A DNA stretch of 32,432 nucleotides, taken from NCBI GenBank assembly GCA_964363945.1, contig CAYIKF010000004.1, positions 1-32,432 on the forward strand, in the 5' to 3' direction. Source of the DNA: an uncultured Gammaproteobacteria bacterium (GTDB lineage: Bacteria; Patescibacteriota; Microgenomatia; UBA8517; JACQJR01). Positions 1-32,389 of this stretch are shown piece after piece; within the stretch, counting starts at the first letter, position 1, and every line of letters starts with the position of its first letter. The translations under genes were made by a program, and so were the position numbers. The notes beneath the pieces are model-generated. The model was not told the origin of the DNA. It did not search any database and was given only the letters and a program-made list of their open reading frames with translations.

Positions 1-2444
1 CTCCACGTAGGAAGCCAATAGTAGAAGTTGTCAAGCCAGCGGGGGACAAAAACGCCTGTCCAATGGGGGAAGAAGAAAATATAAATAATAAGTAATAAGG
101 AAAAAGTAATAAGTATGAAATCCTTTTTCTGGGTTGAGAGATACCAGCCGATGGCCAGCGAGAGGAAGGGAACTGCTGGCAAATAGTGGTAAAGGAACAT
201 AACGCGGGGAGAGAGTGCCCAGGGCAAGAAAAGGAGCCCCCAAGCCGCAACGACAGCCAAAAGCGGGTAGATACGCGCACGTATTCCTGCTACTGCGGCG
301 ATAGCCATTGTCACAATACCACCCCAGAACACAAACGGATTGCCCACTGCAAAAATGTTGGATACAAACCCGTCTTTCCCTTCCGCGAAGAACCACACAG
401 GGCGCAAGCTTAGCGGCCATGTCCACCAAGAAGATTGATACGCATGTGAAGCTTGGAGATTCGTGTGATACCACCACATCTGTTTCTGAAGCTCAATAAA
501 TTGGGACACTGAATGACCGCCTAAAAAGAACGGGATGTAGGAGGCAAGGTAAAGAGCAGGAGGAATTACTGCAAACCATACGATACGCCAGCGTGGCTTT
601 TGCTTAAAAAGGAGCATGAGAACAAACAAGAGAGGTACTACCCACACTGTGGTCCACTTTGATGCTGCAGCAAGTCCCAAAAAAACACTTGAGAAGAAAT
701 AGCGCTCTTTCAGAAAGAATAGTACCGAAAGGAGCGCAAAAAACAAAAAGTAGGTATCGTTCATGCCCACCCTAGACATCACAAGCGGTAAGCCATCAAG
801 CGCAAAGACGGCAGCAGCGAGGAGCCCTACCGTCTTGTTTCGAAATAATTGCACTCCCAGAAGATATACCAAAAAGATCACTCCTACCCCCAACAGTGCA
901 CCGGGCAATCGCCAGCCAAGAGGTCGCTCACCCAGGATAACCATACCCGCCACCATTCCCAGTTTGGCAAGCGGTGGATGGGTCCACTCATACGCAAAGC
1001 CCTTTGGGGGTGTATTCCACCATTCCCACGCAGCATTGTTACCTTGTAACATTTCTTTGGCTGTGAAGGCATGGTAAACCTCATCAAAATAAAAAGTTGG
1101 TGGGAACCAAAGGCCTGCAAGGCGAGACAAAAGTGCAAAGCCAAGAACACCTGCCAGCAAGGGTCTTATCAGTTTATCAGGTATCAGTTTTCGGGTGCCA
1201 GGTATCAGGTTTCGGTTATCAGTTGCCAGTAATTTTCGTTTTAAATAATTGAAAATTGAATGAAAATTTAAAATTGAAAATTGAAAATTCTTTGGTCGGA
1301 GAAAAACCACAACCATTAAACCTGCGGCAATCAAATTTATTACAACAAAAACATCTATTATTCCTTGAGAAAATATTTGGCGAAAACCTTCAGTTATCCA
1401 AACATATGAGTAGCGCAAGTTTGCAAGGTAGGTAGCGGAAAGTATGGCATAGGGCAACCACAGAAGTGGAAACTGGGCAGCCGCTATGGCGAGCGGGGCG
1501 AACGTGGGGAGAAGATGCCGTTCATGCATACGGGTTAAGAACAAAAATGAGACAACAAACCACAACGCAGTAACCAGCCATATGGTAGTCTTACTCTTCT
1601 CTTGCCGAACCCACCAGTATCGCAGGAGCAATGATAATACCGTTACCGCGACCACAATACCTCCTATTTGCAACCCCCCTCCATCCGGTTTCCACAATCC
1701 AGTGATGAGTGCCCAGAAGTTGAACGCATTAATACTACTATAGGGATACTGATTCGCAGTCGCACCTAGCCTTTCCACCACAAACGAGATGAATTCTCCG
1801 ATTCGGAGGATGAAAGGTACACCATGCGCAAATGGGACAAATCCGCCAAGAAAGATAAGTAGCGAGAAAATCGCGTAGCCTATCGTCTTTTTCAATCCAT
1901 AAGTCTTCCACAACAAAACTGCCACAATCGGTGCAATAAATCCTGCTTGGGGTTTGACGAGTGCGCCAGCGCCCAACGCAGCGGCGGAAAGGAGTGGAAG
2001 ATGCTTCGCAAAAAAGATGGAACTCAGTGCAAGAAATACTGTTATTCCATCAATTTGTCCCCACAAGGTTGAATTTGCAAAAACTGCGGGATTAAAAAGG
2101 TAAAGGGCGGCTGCAGGTAGAGCTAACTTCTTATTAAATCGGGAAACGGCAAAAAAGATAAGCGCACCTGTGGCTACATCAGCAAGGATTGCGGGAAGTT
2201 TGTAGAGCAACGTATCTGGTAGTGCTGGTAAGATGGTATTCACTTGACCCAAAAGCCAAAGAACATAAAGATACCCTGGCAGATAATCAGACCACCCATT
2301 GTAAAAATTACCAAGTCCATCCCTTACCAGTTGCTGACTCCACGCAACAAAAGTATTAAAATCAAGGGAAAGTGTACCGGTAGAAGAAAGAAAAAGCCGC
2401 AAAAGAAAACCAATAAGAAAAATAAAAACTATTATGCGTTTCAT
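1..2444 (-). CDS. Large two-module GT-C membrane glycosyltransferase (N-terminal GT-C module fused to a protein O-mannosyltransferase-like PMT module); 3'-partial, >=814 aa
   Basis: Absent from the ORF track because no stop falls inside the window. Manual translation from ATG at 2444 gives MKRIIVFIFLIGFFLRLF..DFNTFVAW..DYLPGYLY..NSTLWGQID..KPQ..FLTRMHERHL, a linker, then FYFDEVYHAF..EWTHPPLAK..WWYHTNLQASHAYQSSWWTWPLSLRPVWF..MFLYHYLP..YYWLPTW. The frame is the same at the start, at 1080-1320 and at the window edge. It was spot-checked, not read codon by codon. Confidence 0.88.
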   Translation of the reverse strand, partial: MKRIIVFIFLIGFLLRLFLSSTGTLSLDFNTFVAWSQQLVRDGLGNFYNGWSDYLPGYLYVLWLLGQVNTILPALPDTLLYKLPAILADVATGALIFFAVSRFNKKLALPAAALYLFNPAVFANSTLWGQIDGITVFLALSSIFFAKHLPLLSAAALGAGALVKPQAGFIAPIVAVLLWKTYGLKKTIGYAIFSLLIFLGGFVPFAHGVPFILRIGEFISFVVERLGATANQYPYSSINAFNFWALITGLWKPDGGGLQIGGIVVAVTVLSLLLRYWWVRQEKSKTTIWLVTALWFVVSFLFLTRMHERHLLPTFAPLAIAAAQFPLLWLPYAILSATYLANLRYSYVWITEGFRQIFSQGIIDVFVVINLIAAGLMVVVFLRPKNFQFSILNFHSIFNYLKRKLLATDNRNLIPGTRKLIPDKLIRPLLAGVLGFALLSRLAGLWFPPTFYFDEVYHAFTAKEMLQGNNAAWEWWNTPPKGFAYEWTHPPLAKLGMVAGMVILGERPLGWRLPGALLGVGVIFLVYLLGVQLFRNKTVGLLAAAVFALDGLPLVMSRVGMNDTYFLFFALLSVLFFLKERYFFSSVFLGLAAASKWTTVWVVPLLFVLMLLFKQKPRWRIVWFAVIPPALYLASYIPFFLGGHSVSQFIELQKQMWWYHTNLQASHAYQSSWWTWPLSLRPVWFFAEGKDGFVSNIFAVGNPFVFWGGIVTMAIAAVAGIRARIYPLLAVVAAWGLLFLPWALSPRVMFLYHYLPAVPFLSLAIGWYLSTQKKDFILITFSLLLIIYIFFFPHWTGVFVPRWLDNFYYWLPTW
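1174..1229. repeat. Degenerate heptamer tandem array (8 units, consensus KTATCAG) in the GT-C linker
   Basis: ttatcag gtatcag ttttcgg gtgccag gtatcag gtttcgg ttatcag ttgccag; read on the minus strand within LATDNRNLIPGTRKLIPDKL. Confidence 0.85.
1251..1291. repeat. GAAAATT heptamer array in the GT-C linker
   Basis: gaaaatt gaat gaaaatt taaaatt gaaaatt gaaaatt ct; 1259-1291 is identical to 7152-7184. Confidence 0.92.
1788..1814. repeat. Mini-hairpin with a 6-bp flanking direct repeat (21-nt in-frame insertion candidate)
   Basis: GATGAA-ttCTCCG att CGGAG-GATGAA; protein GVP-FI-LRIGE-FI-SF. Confidence 0.65.
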
Positions 2445-3543: not shown

Positions 3544-3544
3544 G

Positions 3545-4645: not shown

Positions 4646-4665
4646 GAAAGATACTCCTTTTGTTC

Positions 4666-6597
4666 ATGAGTACTATTGTAACGAATTTAAATCCCCGCCA
4701 ACAAGAGGCGGTCACTTTTTTTGGGGGACCATTACTTATCTTAGCAGGCGCGGGAAGCGGCAAAACACGCGTCCTCACCCACCGTGCAGCCTGGTTAATC
4801 AAAGAAAAAGGTATTCCTTCTGAAAATCTTATCTTGGTAACCTTCACCAATAAAGCAGCAGGCGAGATGAGAGAAAGAATAAAAAAATTACTAACCACTA
4901 ATCACCCCGCCGAAGGCGAGGCTCGCCAAGGGCGGCAATCACTAATCACTCCTCCCCTTGCCTGCACTTTCCATTCCTTTTGTGCACGAGTACTACGCTC
5001 TTATGGCGAGAATATCAGCGTCCCGCGTCACTTTGTCATTTATGATGAAAATGACCAGCAAGAGGCAATAAAAGAGGTACTCACAAAGCTCGGTATGGGA
5101 GTGACCGCCATTAAACCCTCTTCAGTGCTTACGGTAATTTCTCAAGCAAAGAATGAAATGGTAACTGCAGAAGAGTATGCGCAGCTTTCTCGGGGGGAAT
5201 GGCAGCGGCACGTTGCAGTGGTATATCAGGAGTATGAGAAACTGTTGCGCGAGGTGGGGGCGTGCGATTTCGATGATCTCCTGCTTTTGGTTATCAAACT
5301 CTTTGAAGAACACCCCGATATTCGTGAGCGGTATCAAAAAATTTATCAGTATGTACTTGTTGACGAATGGCAAGATACCAATCGCGCGCAATACCGCTTG
5401 ACAAAACTCCTTGCAAAAGAACACCACAATCTGACAGTGGTAGGCGATGCCGCACAAAGTATATACAGTTGGCGGGGCGCAGACTATCGAAATATCGAAT
5501 ACCTTATGCGCGACTTCCCGGACATCACCGTTATTAACCTTGAGCAAAACTACCGCTCAACCCAGACAATTCTTGATGCCGCCTTCCATGTCATATCAAA
5601 AAACAGAACCCATCCAATCCTTAAACTGTGGACAAAAAATGATAAAGGCGAAAAAATAACGCTCTACCAAGCGCATAGTGAGCTTGAGGAAGCAGCATTC
5701 GTGGTAAGCGAAATTGAAAACCTAATAACCTACTCACCTAATAGCCCAATAACCTCTTCCTATCGTGATTTCGCGGTATTGTATCGTACCAATGCCCAAT
5801 CACGCGTGCTTGAGGAAGCAATGCTGCACGCTGGTATTCCTTATGTATTAATCGGGGGAGTACGGTTTTATGAGCGCAAAGAAGTAAAGGACATGCTTGC
5901 ATACCTGCGTCTCTTGGTTAATCCAAAGGATTCTGTATCACAAAAAAGGGCCGAGAAACTAGGTAAAAATCGTCTGAAAAAATTCACAACACTACGCCAA
6001 TCATTAGATGATAACCTTACTACGCTCGAGATTCTCGACAGTGTACTTGACACCACCGGATATCTTAATCTTTACGACACGGATGACCCAGAAGATGCCG
6101 CCCGACTGGAAAATATCAAAGAGTTGCGCTCTGTTGCGGCGGAATTTCCCGATGTGTACGAATTCTTGGAACAAGTCGCCCTGGTTGAGACAGCACAGAC
6201 TAGTAAAGGAGTTATACGTGATGCGGACCACCTGCCAGCGTCTGAGCGCAGCAATGGCGGGCAGGTAACACTCATGACCGCCCATGCCGCAAAGGGACTG
6301 GAGTTTCCAATTGTTTTTATCGTTGGTTTAGAAGAAGGCCTTTTCCCCCATAGTCGGGCGTTTGAGAGAGTTGAGGAACTGGAAGAAGAGCGTCGACTTT
6401 GTTATGTGGGAATCACTCGGGCAAAACAAAAACTATTTCTTACCTTTGCTGACCGACGCTTACTTTTTGGTCAGCGAACCAGTAATATTCCTTCTCGTTT
6501 TTTATCAGATATTCCAGAGGAACTATTTGAACAACCCGTTTCTTTTACACAAACACCAACATGGTCATGGCTAGACAAAACGAGCTACGAGGATTAG
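4666..6597 (+). CDS. pcrA: ATP-dependent SF1A DNA helicase PcrA/UvrD
   Basis: LAGAGSGKT, TFTNKAA, VDEWQDTN, GDAAQSIYSWRGA, NYRS, TAHAAKGLEF, EEERRLCYVGITRA; ATG 4666 preferred over TTG 4660. Confidence 0.95.
   Translation: MSTIVTNLNPRQQEAVTFFGGPLLILAGAGSGKTRVLTHRAAWLIKEKGIPSENLILVTFTNKAAGEMRERIKKLLTTNHPAEGEARQGRQSLITPPLACTFHSFCARVLRSYGENISVPRHFVIYDENDQQEAIKEVLTKLGMGVTAIKPSSVLTVISQAKNEMVTAEEYAQLSRGEWQRHVAVVYQEYEKLLREVGACDFDDLLLLVIKLFEEHPDIRERYQKIYQYVLVDEWQDTNRAQYRLTKLLAKEHHNLTVVGDAAQSIYSWRGADYRNIEYLMRDFPDITVINLEQNYRSTQTILDAAFHVISKNRTHPILKLWTKNDKGEKITLYQAHSELEEAAFVVSEIENLITYSPNSPITSSYRDFAVLYRTNAQSRVLEEAMLHAGIPYVLIGGVRFYERKEVKDMLAYLRLLVNPKDSVSQKRAEKLGKNRLKKFTTLRQSLDDNLTTLEILDSVLDTTGYLNLYDTDDPEDAARLENIKELRSVAAEFPDVYEFLEQVALVETAQTSKGVIRDADHLPASERSNGGQVTLMTAHAAKGLEFPIVFIVGLEEGLFPHSRAFERVEELEEERRLCYVGITRAKQKLFLTFADRRLLFGQRTSNIPSRFLSDIPEELFEQPVSFTQTPTWSWLDKTSYED
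4890..4950. repeat. ACTAATC heptamer array interrupted by a 30-bp GC-rich palindromic element (4906-4935)
   Basis: actaacc actaatc ac[CCCGCCGAAGGCGAGGCTCGCCAAGGGCGG]caatc actaatc act; removing the bracket restores the 7-nt phase. Confidence 0.88.
5721..5755. repeat. Octamer tandem array (CCTAATAA-like, 4 units) in pcrA
   Basis: cctaataa cctactca cctaatag cccaataa cct; encodes NLITYSPNSPITS. Confidence 0.75.
6230..6266. repeat. CCTGCC-type palindromic insertion in pcrA
   Basis: ACCTGCC agcgtctgagcgcagcaatggcg GGCAGGT (7-bp perfect inverted repeat); encodes HLPASERSNGG just before VTLMT. Confidence 0.78.
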
Positions 6598-7577
6598 ACA
6601 AAGTCACTCACCCTTTACAATCGCGGGAGTGGGGAGAGTTTAGAGAGAAAACTGGTGTTGAAGTTGTAAGAGGTAAAGACCTGCCTGCGCAGGCAGGCTT
6701 TCAACTCACAATCCATAAAATCCCATATACCCCATGGTCAATTGGCTACCTTCCCAAAGGACCACTTCCGACAAAACAGACCATCGACGAATTAAAAAAG
6801 ATTGGAGAAGAAAATAGGTGTATTTTTATTCAGCTTGAACCCAATATAGAACGATTTAAGAATTATGATTTAAGATTTAAGAATTTAGGATTACGAACAT
6901 CAATCCGTCCACTTTTTACAAAATACAACTTCGTTATTGATTTGACAAAAAGCGAAGAAGAATTACTTGCAGCAATGCATCCGAAAACCCGATATAATAT
7001 CCGAGTTGCCCAAAAACATGGTGTAACGGTTAAAGAAAGAACAGACGACGAAGCGTTTAAAATTTACTTAAAGCTCTATTTCGAAACAACAAAACGCCAA
7101 AAATATTTCGGCCATACACCAGAGTATCATCGTTTGCTCTGGCAAACTCTAAATGAAAATTTAAAATTGAAAATTGAAAATTCTGATAGGGTTATTCCTC
7201 ATTTGCTAATCGCCTCCTACAAAGGCATTCCACTCACAGCATGGCTGCTCTTACAGTACAAGGATACCCTTTATTATCCCTATGGCGGCTCATCAGAAGA
7301 ACATAAAAACGTCATGGCAAGTAACCTTATTATGTGGGAAGCAATAAAACTTGGAAAAAAATTAGGTTGTAAAACGTTCGATCTCTGGGGCGCCCTCAGC
7401 CCAAATCCAGATCCAAAAGACCCATGGTATGGATTTCATCGATTTAAACAAGGTTATGGCGGGCGACTTGTAGAATATGTTGGAAGTTATGATCTCGTCT
7501 TAAATCCGCTTCTTTACTGGGGGTTTCATTTAATTGATAAACTGCGTTGGATAGTTTTACGCTTAAGGCCTCTCTAA
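6561..7577 (+). CDS. FemAB/FemX-family peptidoglycan bridge aminoacyltransferase
   Basis: HPLQSREWG, YLPKGP, KTRYNIRVA, YYPYGGS, FDLWG, GFHRFKQGYGG; start could be 6561 or 6567 and overlaps the pcrA 3' end. Confidence 0.9.
   Translation: MVMARQNELRGLDKVTHPLQSREWGEFREKTGVEVVRGKDLPAQAGFQLTIHKIPYTPWSIGYLPKGPLPTKQTIDELKKIGEENRCIFIQLEPNIERFKNYDLRFKNLGLRTSIRPLFTKYNFVIDLTKSEEELLAAMHPKTRYNIRVAQKHGVTVKERTDDEAFKIYLKLYFETTKRQKYFGHTPEYHRLLWQTLNENLKLKIENSDRVIPHLLIASYKGIPLTAWLLLQYKDTLYYPYGGSSEEHKNVMASNLIMWEAIKLGKKLGCKTFDLWGALSPNPDPKDPWYGFHRFKQGYGGRLVEYVGSYDLVLNPLLYWGFHLIDKLRWIVLRLRPL
6680..6697. repeat. Perfect 18-bp palindrome CCTGCCTGCGCAGGCAGG, in frame (LPAQAG)
   Basis: Self-reverse-complementary; 6677-6697 matches 8016-8036 with 1 mismatch. 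Confidence 0.93.
6853..6887. repeat. GATTTAA heptamer array (5 units) in the femAB-like gene
   Basis: gatttaa gaattat gatttaa gatttaa gaattta; encodes RFKNYDLRFKNL. Confidence 0.88.
7152..7184. repeat. GAAAATT heptamer array in the femAB-like gene
   Basis: aat gaaaatt taaaatt gaaaatt gaaaatt ct; encodes NENLKLKIENS; identical to 1259-1291. Confidence 0.92.
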
Positions 7578-7602
7578 TTCTATTTTTTATCTTACACTAT
7601 TA

Positions 7603-7639
7603 TCCGCCTTCGTCCGCCAGCTAGCGAACTTCGGCGGGA
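7603..7639. repeat. Nested GC-rich CCGCC..GGCGG hairpin between convergent genes (possible terminator)
   Basis: tCCGCC ttc[gtccgccagctagcgaac]ttc GGCGGga; the inner stem pairs on the minus strand with two G-U pairs; abuts the stop codon at 7640-7642. Confidence 0.7.
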
Positions 7640-10555
7640 TTACGGCTTGTAGCCTCCACAAAACATTTTATATTCACAATTTTGACATAAAATTGAGCCG
7701 GAGCAGGTAAAGTCACTTGTTGCGATTTCTTGGGATACTTTGAGTATCTCTTGTTTTGCAGCGTTAAGTTGCTCTTGCGTCCGTGTTGTTGTTAATTTCT
7801 TTCCTCCCTCGAAAAAATAAAGAGAAAGTGTGAGATCCTCCGGTCTTCTTGCAAACGGCTCCTCTTTTACCTCTGTGCCAGCTAGAGCATACACTGTTAA
7901 TTGTAAATCATCTGCTAATTCTTTATCGGACGGGAGTTTTGCTCCTGTTTTATAATCAATGATTTCTATGCCATTCTTAGTTTTATCCACTCTGTCAATC
8001 TTGCCGCCGATTTTCAGACCTGCCTGCGCAGGCGGGTTTTCTATACGAAACACAAAGGGATGTTCCATAAGAATTGGGACATGTCGAGGATTAAACTCAT
8101 CTTTAAAATACTCCTCAAGGTATCCATACCCTCTTTTTTTCATTAAGCTCTCATGTTGTTTGGAGGAGTAACCCTCACGAATCCAATTCCCCCCATATAA
8201 CTTCCTAAGCTCATCAAGCGTTCCCTTTTTTCGTGCTTTGACGGTGCTATAAAAATCAGCTATTGTTTTATGAAGTGTTATCCCAAAACTTTGTGCTGCT
8301 GAAGGAGTAACAGGAACTCGGACGATATATTTTAACTTGTAATGAAGCGGGCATACTTTAAATTCTTGTATTTGTGAATAGGAAAGATAGGTAACAGGAA
8401 TTCTCACTATTTTTTCTTGCTCAACTTCGTGATCGCCCTTTGCCCACTCAAGGAGTGAAAGCTGGGTAGTTGGTGATTGGTGATCAGTGATTGGTGATTG
8501 GTTAATTGCATCAGTACCCAATGCTTCAAGAACAAAGGGCGAAAGTTTTCTTTCGCGTTTTCCTTCACCGTAATAATTAGCAGCTGTTAAAAATAATCGG
8601 TCGCGTGCGCGTGTCATCCCGACATAAAAAAGTCTTCGTTCCTCCTCGATATGATAATCACCTACCGGCAAGTCTTCTTTGATTAACTCTTCAGGAATAG
8701 GAATTTGTTCTCTGCGCTCATAGGTCGGAAAACGACCGGCAACAAGATTAACTAAAAACACAATAGGAAATTCAAGGCCTTTTGAGGAGTGAACTGTTAA
8801 GATGTACACCGCGTTAAGTCTATCCCAATCAATATCAACTGCTTGCGGTGACTCTCCCAATTCCATTGAAAGCCCAATCCAATCAACGACCGCCGTAATA
8901 CTTGCGTCCTCATGTTCTGTTTCATATGTTTTAAGTTTGTCAAAAAAACGGCTAATATTCTGAGTGCGGCGTTCTTCGAGCTGACTTTCTGGTTTTGCCA
9001 ATTTAGCTAACAGTCCTGTATCCTCAAGAAAATAAAACAAAAGTTGTCCTGCAGTCTCGCGTCGGGCTGCCTTTAAGTGTCTATTGACCATTGCGATAAA
9101 TTTATCAATTGCTTCCTTTGTCTCTTTCCTAACAAAGATTTTGTTGACATCCTCACATGCCTCAAAGAGCGAAAGATTAAAACGCCTCGCATAGTTCATA
9201 ATCGCAGCCAAATCACGTGCAGGGATATCGAAATGGTCCATGGAGAGCACGCGGTAAAGTGATATTGAATCTTCAAAGTTGTATAAAACTTTAAGATAAG
9301 CAATTAAATCTTTTATTTCTTCTTGGCGGAATAACTGACCAGGACCCAAAAATTGGAAGGGAATACCGGCTCGAGAAAATGCACGAGTGAAGGCTTCTGC
9401 ATGGTTATTGGCCCGGACTAAAATAGCAAAATCAGAGAAACTCTTATCTCCTTTTTGGACCAAAGAAAGAATTGTTTTTGCCACACGATCTGCTTCGTTC
9501 TCAACTCTGTCTGTATATAAAAATTCAATCTGTTCCCCTTTTTTCTTTCGTGCAGAAACAAGTTTTTTATCAATCTTTTCTTTTACCTCAAGTCTGTCTG
9601 GATTGTTGTGTTGAACAAGTTGATATGCTCTGTCTAGAATCTCTTGGGTTGAACGATAATTCTCGGTTAGGGTAATAATCTTTGCTTTTGGAAAGTGTTT
9701 GCGAAATTGCATCACATTTGAAACCGCTGCGCCCCGAAATCTGTAAATGCTTTGGTCATCGTCTGCTACGGCTGTAATGTTCGCCCGTTTTCCCGCAAGT
9801 AAAATTGCTAACTCATTTTGAGCATAGTTTGTATCTTGGAATTCATCAACTAAAATGTATTTAAATTGTTCTTTATACCGTTTCAAAATGGCAGGACGAC
9901 GCCGAAAAAGGAGTAGTGCGTTGGTAATTAAATCACCGAAGTCCATAACTCCCTCTTTTACCTTTAACTCTGTGTATTTCTGATACGCTTTTGCCAACTC
10001 CACATACTTTTCAATTTCCTCTTTTTCATACTTTTCGCTTTTAGCTTTTCGCTTTTCGCCCACCCACTTTATGTAATCAGTGGGCGTCACATCCTCATCC
10101 TGGAGTCGAGAAAAATGCTGCAGCATTCCACCAACAAATTTTGTTGGATTGCCTAGAGGTCTAAAGTAGGAAAGCTCAAAAGAAAAAAGATTGGCTCGTA
10201 TAAGTTGTGTTGCTTCCGCTTCTGTTAAGAGGCGGTAATTCGTTGGCAATCCAATAGCAAGCGCTTCAGTACGCAAAATCCGATCGCAAAACGCATGGAA
10301 GGTTGATATCCACATTTGGGTATAGCCATAGGGGACTGCAATATCAACACGCTCCTCCATCTCACGTGCCGCCTTTTCAGTAAAGGTAAGAGCTAGAATC
10401 TCAGAGGGCAACGCTTGCTCTGTGACAATCAAATGTTTAATTCGTTCTGTTACAACCGTGGTCTTCCCCGTCCCCGCACCAGCAATAATCAACAGCGGCC
10501 CACCTTTGTAGGTCACTGCTTGTTGCTGCTCTTTATTAAGTTCAATATCATCCAT
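7640..10555 (-). CDS. UvrD-family helicase fused to a C-terminal PD-(D/E)XK (RecB/AddA/AdnAB-like) nuclease with a putative 4-Cys Fe-S site
   Basis: AGAGTGKT, VDEFQDTN, TVHSSKGLEF, EEERRLFYVGMTRA; C-terminus SYSQI..CPLHY, GKIDRVD, IIDYKTG, QLTVYA, CQNCEYKMFC. Confidence 0.93.
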   Translation of the reverse strand: MDDIELNKEQQQAVTYKGGPLLIIAGAGTGKTTVVTERIKHLIVTEQALPSEILALTFTEKAAREMEERVDIAVPYGYTQMWISTFHAFCDRILRTEALAIGLPTNYRLLTEAEATQLIRANLFSFELSYFRPLGNPTKFVGGMLQHFSRLQDEDVTPTDYIKWVGEKRKAKSEKYEKEEIEKYVELAKAYQKYTELKVKEGVMDFGDLITNALLLFRRRPAILKRYKEQFKYILVDEFQDTNYAQNELAILLAGKRANITAVADDDQSIYRFRGAAVSNVMQFRKHFPKAKIITLTENYRSTQEILDRAYQLVQHNNPDRLEVKEKIDKKLVSARKKKGEQIEFLYTDRVENEADRVAKTILSLVQKGDKSFSDFAILVRANNHAEAFTRAFSRAGIPFQFLGPGQLFRQEEIKDLIAYLKVLYNFEDSISLYRVLSMDHFDIPARDLAAIMNYARRFNLSLFEACEDVNKIFVRKETKEAIDKFIAMVNRHLKAARRETAGQLLFYFLEDTGLLAKLAKPESQLEERRTQNISRFFDKLKTYETEHEDASITAVVDWIGLSMELGESPQAVDIDWDRLNAVYILTVHSSKGLEFPIVFLVNLVAGRFPTYERREQIPIPEELIKEDLPVGDYHIEEERRLFYVGMTRARDRLFLTAANYYGEGKRERKLSPFVLEALGTDAINQSPITDHQSPTTQLSLLEWAKGDHEVEQEKIVRIPVTYLSYSQIQEFKVCPLHYKLKYIVRVPVTPSAAQSFGITLHKTIADFYSTVKARKKGTLDELRKLYGGNWIREGYSSKQHESLMKKRGYGYLEEYFKDEFNPRHVPILMEHPFVFRIENPPAQAGLKIGGKIDRVDKTKNGIEIIDYKTGAKLPSDKELADDLQLTVYALAGTEVKEEPFARRPEDLTLSLYFFEGGKKLTTTRTQEQLNAAKQEILKVSQEIATSDFTCSGSILCQNCEYKMFCGGYKP
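8019..8036. repeat. 18-bp near-perfect palindrome CCTGCCTGCGCAGGCGGG, in frame (PPAQAG on the minus strand)
   Basis: Second copy of 6680-6697; removal gives IENLKIGGKID. Confidence 0.92.
8463..8504. repeat. TTGGTGA heptamer array (6 units) in the helicase-nuclease linker
   Basis: tgggtag ttggtga ttggtga tcagtga ttggtga ttggtta; encodes NQSPITDHQSPTTQ; the reverse-complement unit TCACCAA matches the pcrA array unit. Confidence 0.9.
10031..10058. repeat. CTTTTCG heptamer array (4 units)
   Basis: cttttcg cttttag cttttcg cttttcg; encodes GEKRKAKSEK. Confidence 0.88.
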
Positions 10556-10686: not shown

Positions 10687-10695
10687 AGAAATCAA

Positions 10696-13379: not shown

Positions 13380-13426
13380 GAACCTTGCTTTTAGCAAGAA
13401 CCTTGTTTCTCGCGTTGCTCGAAATA
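13374..13426. repeat. AGAACC-hairpin element, copy 1 (starts over the TrpR-like stop codon, embedded in a TAGTTAAn octamer array 13369-13456)
   Basis: aagtaAGAACCTTGcttttagcaAGAACCTTGtttctcgcgttgctcgaaata; aligns with 27201-27253. Confidence 0.8.
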
Positions 13427-13453
13427 GCTAACTAGTTAATTAGTGAATTAGAT

Positions 13454-16473: not shown

Positions 16474-17772
16474 ATGCCCAATCAATTTACTGCTAGTCTT
16501 TGGGGAGATGAGGCATTTTCGGCAATTTTGGCACAAAAACCCCTTTGGGAAATTGTAACAACCTTAGTTCGCGACACATCACCTCCTGGATACTATTTTG
16601 TTGAACATTTCTGGCTGCAGGTTTTCGGAACTTCGGAAGTTGCAATCCGCAGCCTTTCCTTTGTTTTATTTTTAATAACTGTCTTTTTTGTCTACAAAAT
16701 TGGCGCCCTCGTCTGGGATAAAAAAACAGGGATTGTGGCCGCCATGCTCACATTTCTTAATCCATTCTTATTTATTTATGCTTTTGAAGGACGAATGTAC
16801 ATGATTATGACAGCAGGAGTCACTGCTTCAATGTATTTTTTCCTCACACGGAATTGGGTCTTTTATATTATCGCAACAACTATCGCTCTTTATTCTCACC
16901 ACTTTGCCATCTTTGCCGTCTTTGTCCAGGGATTATGGTTCTTAAAGGAATTGGCAATTGGAAATTGGAAATTGGTAATTCCAATGCTTAAGGCATTTTT
17001 AGTCATAGCATTGGCTTACCTCCCTTGGGTTTATCCGCTCTATTCACAGACACGCATGGTAGGAGCTGGTTTCTGGTTAGGTAAACCGAGCCTCCGAGAC
17101 GCGTGGGAACTCATTCGCAAGTTCTTAACTGAGGCCTCACCTCATAAACTTGCGACGCCTATCCTTTACCTTTTTTGGGTTACTCTTCTTTTCCGTCGTT
17201 GGGAGCGCAACAAGGAAATGACTCTATTTTTCCTCGCGTGGTTCTTGATACCCATAGCACTAACGTATCTTATATCGCAACAGTTTCAATCAATATTTTT
17301 TGACAGATACATGCTTTATACTATTCCTGGCGCGATGCTTGTCCTGGCATCCAATAGGCGACGGATATCAGAGGCACTTCTGGTCTTTGCAGTAATTCTC
17401 CTTTTTATAATTAATTGGTTCTACTTTACACATCCTACAAAACGTCCATTTCGGGAGCTTGCAACGTATGTAAAACAAACCCAAAAACCAGGCGATTTCT
17501 TAGTAAACCATAACGCTGCCGCCCACCATCTTTGGGAATCAAAGTATTACGGTATCCCAGCACCACTTTGGGTTCCTGAAGGAGAGCTTCCCTTTTATGT
17601 GGGCACCGCTTTAATGGAAAAAGAGGATACCGTTCGCACTATTCCCGACGCTACACGTATTGGCATCATTACGAGTGGCAATCTTGCAGAGATAAATCTT
17701 GTAGGCTATACTCAAAAAGAGACGAAATCGTTTGGGCCACTAACCTTTGCATGGTATGAAAAACATCCTTAA
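16474..17772 (+). CDS. GT-C glycosyltransferase (PMT_2/ArnT-like)
   Basis: SLWGDEAFS, DTSPPGYY, EVAIRSLS, EGRMY; polytopic. Confidence 0.88.
   Translation: MPNQFTASLWGDEAFSAILAQKPLWEIVTTLVRDTSPPGYYFVEHFWLQVFGTSEVAIRSLSFVLFLITVFFVYKIGALVWDKKTGIVAAMLTFLNPFLFIYAFEGRMYMIMTAGVTASMYFFLTRNWVFYIIATTIALYSHHFAIFAVFVQGLWFLKELAIGNWKLVIPMLKAFLVIALAYLPWVYPLYSQTRMVGAGFWLGKPSLRDAWELIRKFLTEASPHKLATPILYLFWVTLLFRRWERNKEMTLFFLAWFLIPIALTYLISQQFQSIFFDRYMLYTIPGAMLVLASNRRRISEALLVFAVILLFIINWFYFTHPTKRPFRELATYVKQTQKPGDFLVNHNAAAHHLWESKYYGIPAPLWVPEGELPFYVGTALMEKEDTVRTIPDATRIGIITSGNLAEINLVGYTQKETKSFGPLTFAWYEKHP
16949..16980. repeat. AATTGGN heptamer array (4.5 units)
   Basis: aattggc aattgga aattgga aattggt aatt; encodes ELAIGNWKLVI. 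Confidence 0.88.
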
Positions 17773-22545: not shown

Positions 22546-22617
22546 GGCCTGGTAGCCAAGAGGTAAGGCTGGAGTCTGCAAAACTCCTATGCGCGGGTTC
22601 GAATCCCGCCCAGGCCT
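22546..22617 (+). tRNA. tRNA-Cys (GCA); CCA not encoded
   Basis: Acceptor GGCCTGG/CCAGGCC, discriminator U; anticodon arm GGAGT-CT-GCA-AA-ACTCC; T arm GCGGG-TTCGAAT-CCCGC; upstream TGG-TACAAT (22527-22535). Confidence 0.97.
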
Positions 22618-22668
22618 CAAAAGAGTCATTACTATATTATAGGATGTTTGTGAATATTGTACCGTCCC

Positions 22669-22697
22669 TTGACTTTTAACATCTCATAGTATATACT
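22669..22697 (+). promoter_or_regulatory. Sigma70-type promoter for the M23 gene
   Basis: TTGACT-17 nt-TATACT. Confidence 0.72.
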
Positions 22698-22770
22698 ATT
22701 GACCATCTCCGTCCAGAAAAGCGGAGATTTTTTATGCCCTGATTTGTACACTTCTAGGGCATTTTTGTAT

Positions 22771-23905: not shown

Positions 23906-23909
23906 CAAA

Positions 23910-24914: not shown

Positions 24915-24941
24915 ACTTTATAATTGTACTACAAATCCACT

Positions 24942-26570
<1,629 letters not shown>

Positions 26571-26888: not shown

Positions 26889-26896
26889 ATAATTTA

Positions 26897-26920
26897 ACCA
26901 ATCGCGTTGAACGCGACCAA
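26897..26920. repeat. 15-bp inverted repeat flanked by direct repeats in the groES leader
   Basis: aCCAA-TCGCGTTgAACGCGA-CCAA. Confidence 0.65.
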
Positions 26921-26929
26921 CAGAAAAGG

Positions 26930-26956
26930 CTATCACTTGATAACCTCGACTGCTAT
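26930..26956 (-). promoter_or_regulatory. Degenerate CIRCE-like operator (HrcA)
   Basis: Minus strand ATAGCAGTC-N9-AAGTGATAG versus consensus TTAGCACTC-N9-GAGTGCTAA, at the groES transcription start. Confidence 0.6.
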
Positions 26957-26983
26957 TTTATGGGACAGCTATCACTTTGTCAA
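26955..26983 (-). promoter_or_regulatory. groESL sigma70-type promoter
   Basis: TTGACA-17 nt-TAAAAT on the minus strand. Confidence 0.8.
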
Positions 26984-27952
26984 GGGGTAGGGTAAAAGAC
27001 GTGGCTCACGGAGTTTTCGTTTTTCCGATTTTGCTCTCCTCTCGAATTCCCCAAGCACAATTCCCCCCCAGTCAATAGGATGGAAAAAGGCGCGACCTGG
27101 TTCGATAAGCTCACGAGTATGGCGATTTCGCATGTACCACTGCTGAAGGCGGTACGCTAAAGGTTCTAAAACTACTAAGAGCTTCGATGTAAGATTTAAA
27201 AAGTAAGAACCTATGCTTCGCATAGAACCTTGTTTTTCACTTTGCTTTAAATAAGATTTAAAAAAAATTTTATTCCTAAATCCTAAATCATAAATCTTAG
27301 ATCTTGGCTTCGCTGAGGGCCAATAGTTTCTTGCCCATTCATTTGCACGCAAGAACCTCTCGAACGTATTGTCTTTATTAACTAACGGTACGACCTGCAA
27401 CACCTCATGAGCGGTATAGCGAGTGTTAATAACATGTGGAATACGGAGATTCTCTTCATCCATCCACATATTAAGGCAGAGAGAGTCTTTGTGTTCACTC
27501 CCACCTACCTTGCGTAACTTTACACCGCCCAATAACGAAACTACTCTTACAAGAAGCCGAGTTATCCAGAGTGTCCCTGCTGTTGTGATAATGAAAAGGT
27601 CAATGTCGCTCTTTTTGTCGGCATTGCCCATCGCCAAACTACCTGTAATACCAATAAATCGAACCATAGGAATACGCGAAAAAACATGTGCTCCGTGCTG
27701 CGCAATCACATGCTTATTGGAAGAAACGACTTCCCTTTCCTTCCTCAAAAGCACAAGATACGCTCTGCCCACCATGTGGTAATATTCTCCTGTCTTTTCC
27801 GCAGGAAATACCCCCTCCTGGCGAGGAGTAGCCCATCGCACAAGCTCTTTCCTTGTCAGTGGATACCCAAAGACATCATGATATACCAAAGACAAAAACC
27901 AGTGCGCGGGAACGTGCACTCTCTTTGTAGTTCGTTCTCTAACGTGCCCCAT
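26972..27952 (-). CDS. Pol-beta-superfamily nucleotidyltransferase-domain protein
   Basis: ITGSLAMGNA..SDIDLFII motif; YPLT..EL, CLNMWMDE, YTAHE. Confidence 0.8.
   Translation of the reverse strand: MGHVRERTTKRVHVPAHWFLSLVYHDVFGYPLTRKELVRWATPRQEGVFPAEKTGEYYHMVGRAYLVLLRKEREVVSSNKHVIAQHGAHVFSRIPMVRFIGITGSLAMGNADKKSDIDLFIITTAGTLWITRLLVRVVSLLGGVKLRKVGGSEHKDSLCLNMWMDEENLRIPHVINTRYTAHEVLQVVPLVNKDNTFERFLRANEWARNYWPSAKPRSKIYDLGFRNKIFFKSYLKQSEKQGSMRSIGSYFLNLTSKLLVVLEPLAYRLQQWYMRNRHTRELIEPGRAFFHPIDWGGIVLGEFERRAKSEKRKLREPRLLPYPLTK
27201..27253. repeat. AGAACC-hairpin element, copy 2 (inside a CDS, in frame)
   Basis: aagtaAGAACCTatgcttcgcatAGAACCTtgtttttcactttgctttaaata; read on the minus strand as YLKQSEKQGSMRSIGSYF. 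Confidence 0.8.
27274..27305. repeat. TCCTAAA heptamer array, facing TAAGATTTAA tracts at 27190 and 27252
   Basis: tcctaaa tcctaaa tcataaa tcttaga tctt; encodes RSKIYDLGFRN. Confidence 0.85.
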
Positions 27953-29345
27953 AAGATGAGAGTACCTGGCTCACTCCTTGCTCTACGGTCTTCAATGCCT
28001 CTGTTGGCGTACTCCCTTTAAGTACCTTATTAACAGCATCTTCAAAGTATTTTGAGATACGAGAATTAATACCGGTTGGGCCATCAAACGTACGTCCCGC
28101 AAGGTACCAGGAATGAGCGGTTGACGCTTCTCTCACATATGCTCCTGCTAGCGAATCGTTTGCAAGTAACTCCGCCATATCAGGCCGTGGATAGGGCTCA
28201 CCGAACAATCGTGTCTGCGCGGCAGTGCGGTAGAGCTTCTCTAAACTTTCTTTCTCACTCATGAACTTCAAGAATTCAAATGCCTCCTTCGGGTGCTTAC
28301 TCCTTGCCCATACTCCTTCTGCCCAATAGCTTGCCCAGGTAATGTCTTCCTCTCCCGGTGTCGACTTGGGAAGCTGGGGCACGGGTACGATGTGGAAGGA
28401 AAGGGAAGGATTTTTGGCTTTAACCTCGAATACTTCCCAACTTGGTGCAAAGTACATTGCCACCTTACCAGAGGCGAAACTCAGCGTTGAGGGCGGCAAC
28501 GTTTCGTCCCAAACTTTATCAGCCGTAGCAAAAATAGTGTAGAATGCAAGTGCATCCTCTGCGCGCTTGTCAGTAGGACGAGCGGGATTTGCACTATTTT
28601 GAAGCATCATAAGGGAGAGAATATCTTGCCAGTGGTCAACATTATTTACAGTTCCCAACGCAACTCCTGCTTGCGTAATACTCCCCTGTTGGTCACGGGT
28701 GGTAAGCGCAAGTGCAGCTCGTCTTAACTCATCCCAGGTAGTGGGGGAAGTCAAATTTGCTGCTTTGAAGAGTGCATCATTTACATACAGCCCTAACCCA
28801 TCAATCTCAAGCGGTATACCCACGATGCGACCGTTATGAGTGAGATCAGATGCGGCAATAGGATAAAATCGTGACTGGAACTCGGAAGCACTCAAAACCT
28901 CGGGGAGAAGTGTTGTAAGATCGTTTGCAAACAAAGGAACCCACGTATTATGAAATCGAAAGATATCAGGACCCGCGTTCCTTGCGAGTGAGGAAGTTAA
29001 CCGCTCTCGGTAATCCTGGGGAGATTGCCGCACATAGGTAATTTTGACATTCGGATGTGTTTTCTGATACTCCTCAATGAGCGGCTGGACAATTCCCCCA
29101 TCCTCCCATAGTCCCCACCACGCAAGTGTAACAGGTTCATTTTGCTGTCTTCCTCCAACTAGGCGCATTGCGCCTATAACTCCCCCGCCAATCAAAAGCA
29201 CAAGAAGAAGCACAACACCGAATGCTTTGAGTGGAATCTTTTTGTAAAACGGGGTGCTCTCACCCGCTCCAAACTGTGACACACCTTCTGGCTGAGGTGA
29301 TTGTGGAGGCGTGGGCTGCTTATATGTACTCGGATTTTGGTCCAT
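27939..29345 (-). CDS. ABC-type sugar extracellular solute-binding protein with a TM anchor
   Basis: WWGLWE, GPDIF..HNTW, GLYVN..LF, PTTWDEL, FASGKVAMYF; SD AAGGAG upstream. Confidence 0.9.
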   Translation of the reverse strand: MDQNPSTYKQPTPPQSPQPEGVSQFGAGESTPFYKKIPLKAFGVVLLLVLLIGGGVIGAMRLVGGRQQNEPVTLAWWGLWEDGGIVQPLIEEYQKTHPNVKITYVRQSPQDYRERLTSSLARNAGPDIFRFHNTWVPLFANDLTTLLPEVLSASEFQSRFYPIAASDLTHNGRIVGIPLEIDGLGLYVNDALFKAANLTSPTTWDELRRAALALTTRDQQGSITQAGVALGTVNNVDHWQDILSLMMLQNSANPARPTDKRAEDALAFYTIFATADKVWDETLPPSTLSFASGKVAMYFAPSWEVFEVKAKNPSLSFHIVPVPQLPKSTPGEEDITWASYWAEGVWARSKHPKEAFEFLKFMSEKESLEKLYRTAAQTRLFGEPYPRPDMAELLANDSLAGAYVREASTAHSWYLAGRTFDGPTGINSRISKYFEDAVNKVLKGSTPTEALKTVEQGVSQVLSSYGAR

Positions 29346-29395
29346 AGCTCCTTCTGGGATTTAACAGTACTTTGATGATATCATATGCAAAAGTT

Positions 29396-31171: not shown

Positions 31172-31300
31172 ACTCCAATTACCAAGCACCAAATCACAAA
31201 TAATATCAAAATCCCAAATAACAAATTAAAAACGTTTTGTATTTTGAGATTTCGGTAATTATAATTTGTTTGCTATTTGGAATTTGTGATTTGAAATTTT
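31172..31300. repeat. Intergenic inverted pair of CAAATnn heptamer arrays
   Basis: Left arm is C/A-rich (CAAATCACAAAT 31190-31201). Right arm carries its exact reverse complement (31282-31293). A central AAAACGTTTT palindrome lies at 31229-31238. The element ends at the tsaD ATG. Confidence 0.85.
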
Positions 31301-32389
31301 ATGGTGATACTAGGTATAGAGACTAGCTGCGATGAGACTGCGGCAAGTGTTGTGGAAGACGGGCGAAAAGTTTTATCACATGTACTTGCTTCATCAGCTG
31401 ATATGCATGCAAAAACAGGAGGTATTATTCCTGAAGTTGCAGCGCGTGAACAGGTAAAAGCAATTTTACCAGTAATTAATGAAGCAATTGAAAATTGTAA
31501 ATTGAAAATTGAAAATTTAGATGCCATAGCAGTAACAGCCGGTCCAGGGTTAATTGGTTCTCTCTTAGTGGGAGTTGAAACCGCACGAACGCTCGCGTAC
31601 GTCTGGAATAAGCCAATCGTGCCTGTTAATCACCTTGTTGGACACATATACGCGAATTGGCTGGTAGCAGGTAGCACGTGGCATGTAGAAAAACCACAAG
31701 CCACAAGCTATAAACCACACGCTCCAGAATTTCCTGCTTTGGCGTTAGTAGTATCGGGCGGGCATACAGACTTAGTTTTAATGACAGCTCATGGAAAAAT
31801 GAAATGGATTGGAGGAACACGAGACGATGCGGCAGGAGAAGCATTCGACAAGACAGCACGGCTTTTAGGACTCCCCTATCCCGGAGGGCCAGCTATAGCC
31901 GCCGAAGCGGCTAAATTCGAAGCACGAAATTCGAAGCACGAAAAATTACACATGTTTCCAAGACCAATGATGGATGAGAAAAACTTTGATTGGAGTTTTT
32001 CGGGGCTCAAAACTGCGGTTCTTAGGGAAACTGAAAAACTTAAAAACAAAAAGACTAAAAAACTCTCAGGAGAAGAAATCTCTTGCTTGGCAGCAGAGAT
32101 TCAGGAAGCGATTGTTGATGTACTGGTAACAAAAACTATTCGCGCCGTCAAGAAATTTAAACCACAGTCTCTGCTACTGGGTGGGGGCGTTGCAGCCAAC
32201 CAACGGCTGTGTGAAGAATTTAAATTGAAAATTGAAAATTTAAAATTGAAAATTAACCTACATGTCCCTCCACCACTTCTTTGTACTGATAATGCCAGCT
32301 ATATTGCAGCAGCTGCATACTATAACTACAAACCTGTCGACTGGAGAAAGATAACAGTAAAACCAGAGTTAACGATTATGGGAGAATGA
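31301..32389 (+). CDS. tsaD: tRNA N6-adenosine threonylcarbamoyltransferase TsaD
   Basis: LGIETSCDET, GPGLIGSL, HLVGH, VSGGHT, DDAAGEAFDK, YPGGP, SFSGLKT, GGVAAN, CTDNA. Confidence 0.97.
   Translation: MVILGIETSCDETAASVVEDGRKVLSHVLASSADMHAKTGGIIPEVAAREQVKAILPVINEAIENCKLKIENLDAIAVTAGPGLIGSLLVGVETARTLAYVWNKPIVPVNHLVGHIYANWLVAGSTWHVEKPQATSYKPHAPEFPALALVVSGGHTDLVLMTAHGKMKWIGGTRDDAAGEAFDKTARLLGLPYPGGPAIAAEAAKFEARNSKHEKLHMFPRPMMDEKNFDWSFSGLKTAVLRETEKLKNKKTKKLSGEEISCLAAEIQEAIVDVLVTKTIRAVKKFKPQSLLLGGGVAANQRLCEEFKLKIENLKLKINLHVPPPLLCTDNASYIAAAAYYNYKPVDWRKITVKPELTIMGE
31486..31518. repeat. GAAAATT heptamer array in tsaD
   Basis: aatt gaaaatt gtaaatt gaaaatt gaaaatt t; encodes IENCKLKIENL. Confidence 0.9.
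31663..31721. repeat. Inverted pair of heptamer arrays in tsaD
   Basis: ggtagca ggtagca cgtggca tgtagaa / ccacaag ccacaag ctataaa ccacacg; encodes VAGSTWHVEKPQATSYKPH. Confidence 0.8.
31913..31940. repeat. Perfect 14-bp (7+7) tandem duplication in tsaD
   Basis: AAATTCGAAGCACG x2; encodes KFEARNSKHE. Confidence 0.9.
32028..32064. repeat. AAACTnAA octamer array in tsaD
   Basis: aaactgaa aaacttaa aaacaaaa agactaaa aaact; encodes TEKLKNKKTKKL. Confidence 0.7.
32214..32254. repeat. GAAAATT heptamer array in tsaD
   Basis: aagaatt taaatt gaaaatt gaaaatt taaaatt gaaaatt; encodes EFKLKIENLKLKI. Confidence 0.9.

Follow-up and report, generated by a model that had tools for sequence, protein, structure and literature searches.

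Short heptanucleotide arrays within and between the genes of a Microgenomates bacterium

The contig CAYIKF010000004.1 of the assembly GCA_964363945.1 (the window: the entire contig of 32,432 bp, forward strand) carries about 18 short tandem arrays detected by Tandem Repeats Finder (TRF), and the genome to which it belongs contains arrays with a period of seven nucleotides in numbers far above those of shuffled sequences. We see an even chance that these arrays are of the heptanucleotide simple-sequence kind, that they change by local misalignment in steps of 7 nt combined with copying between arrays, and that they are filtered by translation and tolerated within genes. An initial annotation of the window had described such arrays in conserved genes and spacers and had ascribed them to a dedicated writing or copying process rather than to local slippage. 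The arrays themselves were recovered by TRF where they had been described, those internal to open reading frames (ORFs) are in frame, and the spacer at 31172-31300 is periodic; the proposed origin fared less well.

The source is listed in GenBank as an uncultured Gammaproteobacteria bacterium and is placed by GTDB in the lineage Patescibacteriota; Microgenomatia; UBA8517; JACQJR01. Its assembly (G000) comprises 645,885 bp in 66 contigs, has a G+C content of 43% and is 87.7% complete; the window is its contig C4. The closest named relatives according to GroEL are “Candidatus Microgenomates” and “Candidatus Woesebacteria” (78-91% identity), and the organism is a Microgenomates/Woesebacteria-like bacterium of the candidate phyla radiation (CPR). 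Near-identical DNA is contained in groundwater metagenome runs of five studies. Pfam searches with the ORFs of the window revealed two GT-C proteins of the PMT type, UvrD/PcrA, a FemAB-family protein, a helicase-nuclease combining UvrD with PD-(D/E)XK, NTP_transf_2 and TsaD. For comparison we used G001 from the same genus (82-93% nucleotide identity to G000 in syntenic DNA), the more distant G002 (65-73%) and further relatives from the same order (G004-G129).

Heptanucleotide excess, array size and distribution among relatives

Arrays were detected genome-wide using TRF (score of at least 40, non-redundant) and, independently of TRF, using a lag self-match test that requires at least 19 matches in 24 positions. 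Tri-nucleotide block shuffles as well as order-3 and order-5 Markov simulations, five replicates each, served as controls. TRF detected 189 arrays in the whole genome of G000, among them 79 with period 7, 27 with period 14, 7 with period 21, 7 with period 8, 7 with period 9 and 11 with period 12, whereas in the 15 control replicates period 7 accounted for 0-1 arrays and period 8 for 0-0.4. The lag test resulted in 118 runs at lag 7, which were merged into 105 arrays, as compared with 8 at lag 8, 10 at lag 9, 6 at lag 12, none at lags 5, 10, 11 and 13, and 0-0.3 in shuffles; at a stricter threshold 39 runs at lag 7 and one at lag 8 were retained. The enrichment of period 7 over periods 5, 10 and 11 and over shuffled controls, which the initial annotation had proposed as a check, was thus found. 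Period 8, which it had set beside period 7, also exceeds the shuffles and periods 5, 10 and 11 but is only minor in G000. In G001 the same test gave 79 runs at lag 7, 23 at lag 8, none at lag 5 and one at lag 10. Period 8 therefore represents a genuine but minor class, with 7-11 arrays in G000 and a clearer signal in G001.

As claimed initially, the period is fixed and the unit varies: 49 different canonical units occur in G000, the commonest being of the GAAAATT type (12/105 arrays), followed by the GGAAATT type (10/105), and the same units recur in unrelated genes. The units contain 73% A+T as compared with 57% for the genome, and many of them include AATT or AAAT. Array density differs strongly among the contigs of G000 (C1, 18 in 56 kb; C4, 10 in 32 kb; C8, none in 22 kb; C12, none in 17 kb). 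Period 7 is also dominant in G001, in G008 and in a control set of 80 diverse bacterial tsaD loci (1.28 Mb), which gave 34 runs at lag 7 versus 0-10 at other lags, corresponding to 26.6 per Mb and stemming mainly from CPR loci. The heptamer excess is a general prokaryotic trait.

The size of the arrays is peaked at approximately 27-33 nt, or four to five units, and does not follow a geometric distribution. According to the 98 of 99 period-7 TRF rows covered by the copy-number bins, 11 arrays have 3-4 copies, 62 have 4-5, 18 have 5-6, six have 6-7 and one has 8-9, the highest value being 8.3. The lengths of perfect self-match runs form two modes separated by a trough at 15-20, and near-perfect arrays show length peaks at 27 and 32-33 nt and a maximum of 39 nt, a pattern that is similar in G001 and G008.

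Furthermore, exact words of 24 nt or more are common to 41 pairs of distinct arrays, and in 29 cases the shared word departs from perfect periodicity. The sequence AATT(GGAAATT)4, 32 nt in length, is identical at seven loci, and the array at C1:50232 and that of tsaD at 32215 agree in 32 nt, a variant position included. Within the window, all 33 nt of the segment 1259-1291 recur at 7152-7184. Compared with G001 the array at 1259-1291 is new, and its gene is encoded on the opposite strand, where the variant common to both segments is not required. At the level of sequence identity, these matches point to copying or conversion between arrays.

The richness in arrays across the order was estimated by a proxy restricted to a single unit, three copies of GAAAATT with at most two mismatches, which was present in 71 of 139 genomes, the relatives being non-independent. 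The reversed control of the proxy was mostly 0, with counts of 52, 21 and 21 in three genomes favouring other units. Sampled densities of lag-7 arrays were 730 per Mb in G008 (100 kb; 448 per Mb in the whole genome), 163 in G000, 152 in G002, 133 in G017, 100 in G001, 50 in G004, 50 in G010 (400 kb), 30 in G013 and 17 in G012. No lag-7 arrays were detected in the 60-100 kb sampled from each of G020, G060, G074, G129 and G127.

The single-contig genome of G008 carries 30 of its 367 arrays wholly inside ORFs and 337 elsewhere; the latter fill 90 of the 623 intergenic gaps, a single gap holding as many as 10 arrays. Its intergenic arrays form mosaics in which different units follow each other in recurring order, separated by short fixed linkers (for example at 5516-5792, 7298-7932 and 28684-29269). 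The non-periodic junctions of these mosaics are present in 29-46 copies in G008, and none were found in 400 kb of its congener G010; identity between the aligned DNA of the two genomes is only about 71%. The arrays are unevenly spread along the G008 chromosome, with 0-8 per 50 kb at 400-600 kb and 38-63 per 50 kb at 0-150 kb. A strand-specific mechanism, such as primer realignment of fixed polarity, was dropped because A-rich and T-rich orientations in G008 are balanced in both replichores.

Translation of the arrays and the fate of their sites in related genomes

Based on ORFs assigned by a greedy longest-ORF rule in place of a gene finder, 78 of the 105 arrays in G000 lie wholly within ORFs, 14 partly so and 13 between ORFs, as compared with a coding fraction of 0.917. 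Sixty-six arrays are at least 25 amino acids away from both ends of an ORF of at least 150 amino acids. Since arrays can point either way with respect to the gene and are also found between genes, the periodicity exists at the DNA level, as the initial annotation had recognised.

Translation filters the arrays, with a preference for units free of stop codons on the sense strand. Units that would be prone to stops if perfectly repeated make up 23 of the 66 internal arrays when read in the sense direction and 39 of 66 in the antisense direction, compared with 56% of random heptamers of the same composition. A perfect array of such a unit would place a stop codon at every third unit, and one variant base is sufficient to remove it; in sense-read GAAAATT arrays a single G>T or A>T change abolishes the in-frame TGA. 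K, L, I, S and N are frequent residues in the peptides encoded by the arrays.

The position of arrays within a protein is best illustrated by TsaD, the gene of which contains five of them on the plus strand. In the structural model (mean predicted local distance difference test score, pLDDT, 88.2) array 1 (GAAAATT, 31486-31517, read NCKLKIENL), array 3 (period 14, AAATTCGAAGCACG, 31913-31943), array 4 (period 8, AAACTAAA, 32028-32064) and array 5 (GAAAATT, 32212-32254, detected by TRF at 32222-32254, read EFKLKIENLKLKIN) correspond to the C-terminal ends of the helices 44-66, 195-209, 234-251 and 301-313, respectively, together with the next turns, at pLDDT values of 84-96. Array 2 (GGTAGCA followed by CCACAAG, 31663-31719; TRF 31663-31688 and 31694-31719) encodes an insertion loop of 17-20 amino acids that is disordered in the model, with pLDDT below 50 at residues 128-138. 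An alignment with 19 relatives revealed no change of length at arrays 1, 3 and 5, even against a family of 40% identity, and array 5 has the same length in all 19 orthologues aligned. Array 1 is identical in G001, array 2 is 21 nt longer than in G001 and G002, array 4 is 15 nt longer than in G002, and array 5 is replaced by AAGATCT of equal length in G002. Other relatives possess TsaD insertions of their own at these two or three places, and their tsaD genes carry lag-7 arrays of other units at matching sites. Most arrays of G000 persist in frame within genes, where they occupy tolerant places, namely the C-terminal ends of surface helices with the following turn and variable loops. The initial annotation had taken the arrays for loop insertions of 10-20 amino acids. 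This holds only in part: it applies to array 2 of tsaD, the remaining four of five TsaD arrays encode native helix ends and turns as long as those of distant orthologues, and 18 of the 43 coding sites that could be compared with G001 show no length difference. The gene for leucyl-tRNA synthetase (LeuRS; G000:C40:3-2825) harbours five period-7 arrays, one period-8 array and two palindromes of the LPAQAG type described below, all in frame.

Out of 93 testable arrays 73 could be anchored in G001, of which 53 were kept (flank identity of at least 0.6) and 20 dropped; array edges and alignments within diverged segments are approximate. At these 53 sites G001 has the same array in four cases, an array of another unit and equal length in seven, an array of differing length in five, a non-periodic sequence of equal length in eight and a non-periodic sequence of differing length in 29. 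The sites are long-lived across family-level divergence, and their units turn over, often without a change in length.

Clean differences of +21 nt relative to G001 were found at two coding sites, where G001 retains one or two seed units, and a clean difference of +28 nt at one intergenic site; most of the remaining length differences between G000 and G001 are not multiples of 7. These clean steps contradict the initial dismissal of local slippage, and taken together with the identical imperfect arrays at other loci they make it likely that both local slippage and copying from array to array take place.

The data on strains consist of contigs from metagenome runs, in which rare length variants are hidden and uncovered stretches are uninformative. 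A strain of about 98% identity (run X3) aligns gap-free across 31490-31935, which includes array 2 of tsaD, and no indel is listed for it at 27246-27296. Metagenome contigs end at arrays at the window positions 16961/16966, 27274-27303 and 31515. The depth in bins holding arrays is 142-644 versus about 2-18 in most others, and this 10-100-fold rise indicates that the same arrays are abundant in the community.

Possible origins of the arrays and comparison with known systems

As stated initially, no candidate for an array-writing enzyme is encoded in the window. No match to a reverse transcriptase (RVT_1) was detected in G000, which is 87.7% complete. A gene resembling RAYT (REP-associated tyrosine transposase; REP, repetitive extragenic palindrome) of the Y1 HUH type was identified at G000:C11:18316-18983; it is cut by the contig end, encodes at least 222 amino acids with an HFH motif and matches Y1_Tnp with 40.5 bits against a cut-off of 23. 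The Y1_Tnp family occurs in 78 of the 139 genomes of the order, generally in multiple copies (1-8, once 29), and is associated with the array proxy (odds ratio approximately 4.3; Fisher p about 1e-4, without phylogenetic correction). As generator of the arrays it was rejected, since it is neither necessary (G017 reaches 133 per Mb without Y1_Tnp, and eight proxy-rich genomes lack it as well) nor sufficient (G074, G020 and G129 encode it and have 0 arrays in the 60-100 kb sampled from each). With respect to the copying proposed initially, the identical arrays at unrelated loci do favour some copying between them.

Loss of mismatch repair was likewise rejected as the cause. MutS_V was detected in nine of the 139 genomes, none of which is proxy-rich and three of which were sampled and have 0 arrays, and is absent from G000 and 130 of the 139 genomes, including G060 and G074, which also have 0 arrays in the stretches sampled. 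The loss of MutS is at most permissive.

Apart from the arrays, the genome contains small perfect palindromes. The palindrome CCTGCCTGCGCAGGCAGG of 18 nt is present in 12 copies in G000, in nine copies in G001 and not at all in G008; nine of its ten copies within ORFs read LPAQAG, one of them in LeuRS, which additionally carries a variant copy. Two copies lie in the window, one at 6677-6702 (plus strand), read in frame as LPAQAG in the FemAB-family gene and also present in G001, and one at 8016-8041 (minus strand), read PPAQAG in the helicase-nuclease gene and opposed by a clean 18-nt gap in G001; the others are located on contigs C1, C6, C9, C12, C17, C20, C29, C40 and C44. Clean 18-nt gaps in G001 were found at C4:8022, C17:9953 and C44:1257, and two further gaps are near-clean. 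The perfect palindrome TCCGCCAGCTGGCGGA also occurs in 12 copies (contigs C1, C2, C9, C11, C12, C13, C19, C25 and C48), 11 of them in ORFs, where it is read PPAGG (six), SASWR (four) or RQLA (one). A third palindrome, AAGGGG[AT]CCCCTT, has six copies, one 28 nt upstream of the RAYT-like gene, one inside this gene and four elsewhere, while the two 12-copy families do not flank the RAYT-like gene. Five to six of 24 palindrome sites have flanks above the 99th percentile of 7-periodicity, as compared with 0.24 expected, and other GC-rich palindromes were found inside arrays of G001. The arrays are preferred landing sites for mobile palindromes of 16-18 nt. A GC-rich hairpin adjoins 17 of the 105 arrays versus 5.95 +/- 1.9 at random positions; an interpretation of such pairs as intrinsic terminators with a U-tract derived from the repeat was rejected, since the best examples are located inside long PMT, GT2 and LeuRS ORFs.

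Taking these observations into account, we regard the arrays as members of a lineage-wide, AT-rich class, predominantly heptanucleotide and less often octanucleotide, which is found in many Microgenomates (Woesebacteria-like) CPR genomes and is broadly of one kind with the heptanucleotide long simple sequence repeats of prokaryotes and the tandem heptamer repeats of cyanobacteria. They would presumably arise and change by local misalignment during replication or repair in steps of 7 nt, of which only net multiples of 3, typically 21 nt, would survive in genes. Copying or conversion between arrays at separate loci may then homogenise them and spread units such as GAAAATT and GGAAATT. Several points weigh against this proposal. 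Stepwise slippage predicts more arrays of three than of four copies, and the opposite was seen. A universal property of polymerases would explain neither a range from 0 to about 450-730 arrays per Mb within one order nor the difference between about 50 and 448 per Mb within one genus. The conversion between loci is deduced from identity, and stop avoidance forces some of the shared variants. Copy-number differences were not found in the coding arrays covered by contigs of the strain of about 98% identity, in which rare variants would be hidden.

The main rival, which sharpens the initial idea, is an active, element-like machinery that writes or copies arrays of about 32 nt and mosaics into new sites in lineage-specific bursts, with a RAYT-like Y1 HUH protein or another enzyme mobilising them together with the palindromes. 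We regard it as possible, though less probable than the combination of misalignment and copying. It has no enzyme, but it accounts better for the peaked array size of 27-33 nt, for the bursts and for the dispersed mosaics: density is 0 in five sampled relatives and 448 per Mb in the whole of G008, and the G008 junctions recur across the filled gaps and are missing from the stretch of G010 sampled. Identical imperfect arrays at unrelated loci, such as 1259-1291 and 7152-7184, would be expected under such a machinery, as would a site at which a degenerate array of another unit is replaced, without change in length, by a GAAAATT array identical to a tsaD array at 32 of 32 nt. The palindromes with their clean 18-nt presence or absence in 7-periodic flanks, the Y1_Tnp gene with AAGGGG[AT]CCCCTT upstream and inside, and the phylogenetically uncorrected association of Y1_Tnp with the proxy are in line with it as well. 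However, G017 and the proxy-rich genomes without Y1_Tnp, as well as the genomes encoding it with 0 arrays in the stretches sampled, speak against it, RVT_1 gave no match, neither target-site duplications nor defined element ends were seen, and the clean differences of +21 and +28 nt that retain seed units fit local expansion. Moreover, we know of no HUH Y1 transposase that makes tandem heptamers. More tentatively still, one ultra-small mobile DNA system proliferating in bursts in CPR bacteria might unite the heptamer arrays with the palindromes of 16-18 nt landing in them, and possibly also with the RAYT-like HUH genes in their multiple copies, a notion we consider rather improbable. If true, segments of essential proteins would in some lineages be rewritten in frame and with their length kept, as a DNA-level turnover of surface segments in minimal genomes, and the system would offer a tractable model for the heptamer and small-repeat phenomenon of cyanobacteria, which so far is without explanation.

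It seems unlikely that the periodicity itself is selected, be it as sites bound by a single-strand or minor-groove binding protein with 7 nt per subunit, as RNA elements or as amphipathic peptide modules of seven residues. Position and length are conserved across the family while the unit changes, array length is narrow, many units share AATT or AAAT, and peptides rich in K, L, I, S and N are placed on helix ends; CspB is reported to bind heptamer repeats with one protein per heptamer (excerpts of PMC4679880). Such a role is difficult to reconcile with 49 units in both orientations, in coding and non-coding DNA, in disordered loops and membrane segments, with the non-periodic state of 37 of 53 sites in the congener G001, and with same-order genomes devoid of arrays in the stretches sampled; nor was a common flanking signal found. 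A function as contingency loci, in which slippage by one 7-nt unit would toggle genes by frameshift, is very improbable. In its favour, a period of 7 is not divisible by 3, and G000 and most of the order lack MutS_V; the arrays are, however, situated in essential single-copy genes (tsaD, pcrA, LeuRS), in the middle of genes instead of 5'-proximal, and are interrupted by variant units; every host frame is intact, and no indel is listed at the covered coding arrays of another strain. Finally, chance, a composition effect or an assembly artefact can hardly be credited. Although G000 is a fragmented metagenome-assembled genome of 66 contigs that tend to break at arrays, the shuffles yield 0-1 arrays, reading frames stay open, several arrays are identical in the independently assembled G001, and the same phenomenon is seen in the single-contig genomes G008 and G010.

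Heptanucleotide repeats have been reported as the most abundant class, with polymerase slippage proposed as their origin (Mrazek et al. 2007, as summarised in excerpts of PMC4679880). For long simple sequence repeats (LSSR), period 7 tops the units of 5-11 nt with an excess scattered across phyla, the proposed slippage with a contact length of 7 nt was never shown, and repeats whose unit length is not divisible by 3 are found mainly outside coding DNA (excerpts of PMC4679880 and PMC4692102). The arrays of G000 share with LSSR the head-to-tail 7-nt units beyond chance and the dominance of period 7; they differ from what these excerpts describe in that 78 of 105 are located in ORFs and translated, in their density of 163 per Mb in a genome of 0.65 Mb, in their peaked size and in the retention of length while the unit is replaced. 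G-rich GGGNATC heptamers in Xanthomonas and Nostoc are mostly intergenic with a preference for about four units, and no detailed literature on heptameric repeats was available according to the same source (excerpts of PMC4692102). The short tandemly repeated repetitive sequences (STRR) of cyanobacteria resemble our arrays as dispersed heptamer arrays, and their mainly intergenic location is matched by G008 with its 30 of 367 arrays in ORFs; the arrays of G000, in contrast, are mostly coding, AT-rich and composed of 49 units. The STRR of heterocystous cyanobacteria possess a few fixed consensus units (STRR1-3). The small dispersed repeats (SDR) of Nostoc punctiforme studied by Elhai et al. in 2008 are reportedly very small mobile elements inserting into tandem heptamer arrays and genes. 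By analogy, the palindromes of G000 may be comparable with SDR, as they show clean presence or absence between congeners and favour 7-periodic flanks, but they belong to another phylum, have other sequences and are perfect palindromes read LPAQAG, PPAGG and SASWR. Rickettsia palindromic elements (RPEs) are selfish palindromes of about 100-150 bp that have entered conserved protein genes in frame, at surface positions where they are tolerated; they do not consist of tandem heptamers as our arrays do.

TAACTGA direct repeats of marine Beggiatoaceae occur in 2-6 copies and about 170 sets per genome, are patchily distributed across the phylogeny and have no known mechanism; they consist of a single unit, the stop codons of which limit placement, and nearly all are intergenic, just upstream of start codons (excerpts of PMC4679880). 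They resemble the arrays of G000 as heptamer direct repeats with stop-limited placement and differ in their single unit and intergenic location. Diversity-generating retroelements differ by the RVT_1 gene, for which G000 has no match, and by pairs of template and variable repeats of about 100 nt with adenine-specific differences, as opposed to tandem repeats of 30 nt. Phase-variable contingency loci are not resembled by interrupted arrays in the middle of essential genes with open frames. With REP sequences and the hairpins formed by REP doublets (REPIN) the genome has in common a RAYT-like gene, on which the presence of arrays does not depend across the relatives sampled.

A literature search that in part named these groups revealed no paper linking heptamer arrays with CPR, Patescibacteria or Microgenomates. 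New here are that arrays lie in frame within genes, that units are exchanged at fixed sites while the length is kept, and that the arrays are linked with mobile palindromes of 16-18 nt, all this in sub-megabase genomes. The heptanucleotide excess has been noted in prokaryotes since 2007 and in cyanobacteria since 1990; to our knowledge it has no tested mechanism. The question why seven, and what generates the arrays, becomes testable in genomes below 1 Mb with relatives ranging from zero to hundreds of arrays, where step sizes can be read off directly at orthologous sites and translation acts as a built-in survival filter. Furthermore, the essential and conserved enzymes TsaD, PcrA and LeuRS tolerate the repeated overwriting of helix ends by repeat-encoded peptides, which bears on annotating, aligning and folding CPR proteins, and the arrays fragment short-read metagenome assemblies of such genomes.

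Individual arrays of the window

Coordinates given in this section are those of TRF unless another range is added. Every ORF-internal array of the window is read through in frame within a long ORF, as exemplified by NLKLKIENS, NFQFSILNFHS, ELAIGNWKLVI and EFKLKIENLKLKIN.

The first PMT-type GT-C gene (minus strand) contains a period-7 array of ATAAGTA at 81-115, in frame in the C-terminal membrane part; the site has equal length in G001 and G002, the latter with a different unit. Units of TATCAGG/TATCAGT with periods of 7, 14 and 28 extend over 1166-1229 in frame in a GT-C gene on the minus strand (1175-1222 as period 7, 1167-1229 as period 14/28), followed at 1247-1289 by a GAAAATT-type array on the same strand, which is read antisense as NFQFSILNFHS and is 18 nt longer than the site in G001. 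On the plus strand, the UvrD/PcrA gene carries a period-8 array (AACCTAAT, 5719-5755) in frame, where G001 also shows period 8 with other units and is 42 nt longer. Two period-7 arrays were found in the FemAB-family gene (plus strand). That at 6853-6892 consists of GATTTAA in G000, AAAGTTC in G001 and AATTTCC in G002 at equal length in all three. The other, GAAAATT at 7154-7182, is read NLKLKIEN with a G>T variant abolishing the in-frame TGA; it is unchanged in G001, and G002 has a non-periodic sequence of equal length.

Two further period-7 arrays are located in the helicase-nuclease gene (minus strand; units given on the gene strand). The site at 8470-8502 (TCACCAA) has different units in G001 and G002 and differs in length by 3 and 12 nt, whereas that at 10031-10059 (CGAAAAG; on the forward strand CTTTTCG in G000, AATTTCG in G001 and GATTTCG in G002) is equal in length. 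The second PMT-type GT-C gene (plus strand) contains AATTGGA at 16949-16980, read ELAIGNWKLVI; the site is non-periodic in G001, and metagenome contigs break there. In the NTP_transf_2 gene (minus strand) period-7 TCCTAAA with an A/T run covers 27246-27296 (TRF 27274-27296), a segment that is mostly missing from G001.

Among the intergenic arrays, TAGTTAAn of period 8 covers 13420-13451 (TRF 13433-13451), and the strain of run X3 has 30 other letters where G000 has the intergenic segment 13379-13453. The 129-bp spacer upstream of tsaD (31172-31300, with a period-7 TRF array at 31190-31226) consists of an A-rich half followed by a T-rich half and is 7-periodic over its full length, with a lag-7 self-match of 0.53, whereas 500 shuffles averaged 0.31 and did not exceed 0.43; in strain X3 a different heptamer array takes the place of 31202-31264.

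A dispersed repeat of about 30-55 nt with 83% identity was detected at 13397-13426 (intergenic) and 27224-27253 (in the NTP_transf_2 gene), in both cases adjoining arrays, and copies of it are present on several contigs of G001. The sole RNA gene found in the window encodes tRNA-Cys (GCA) at 22546-22618; its depth is raised in four of four runs, as expected for a conserved gene.

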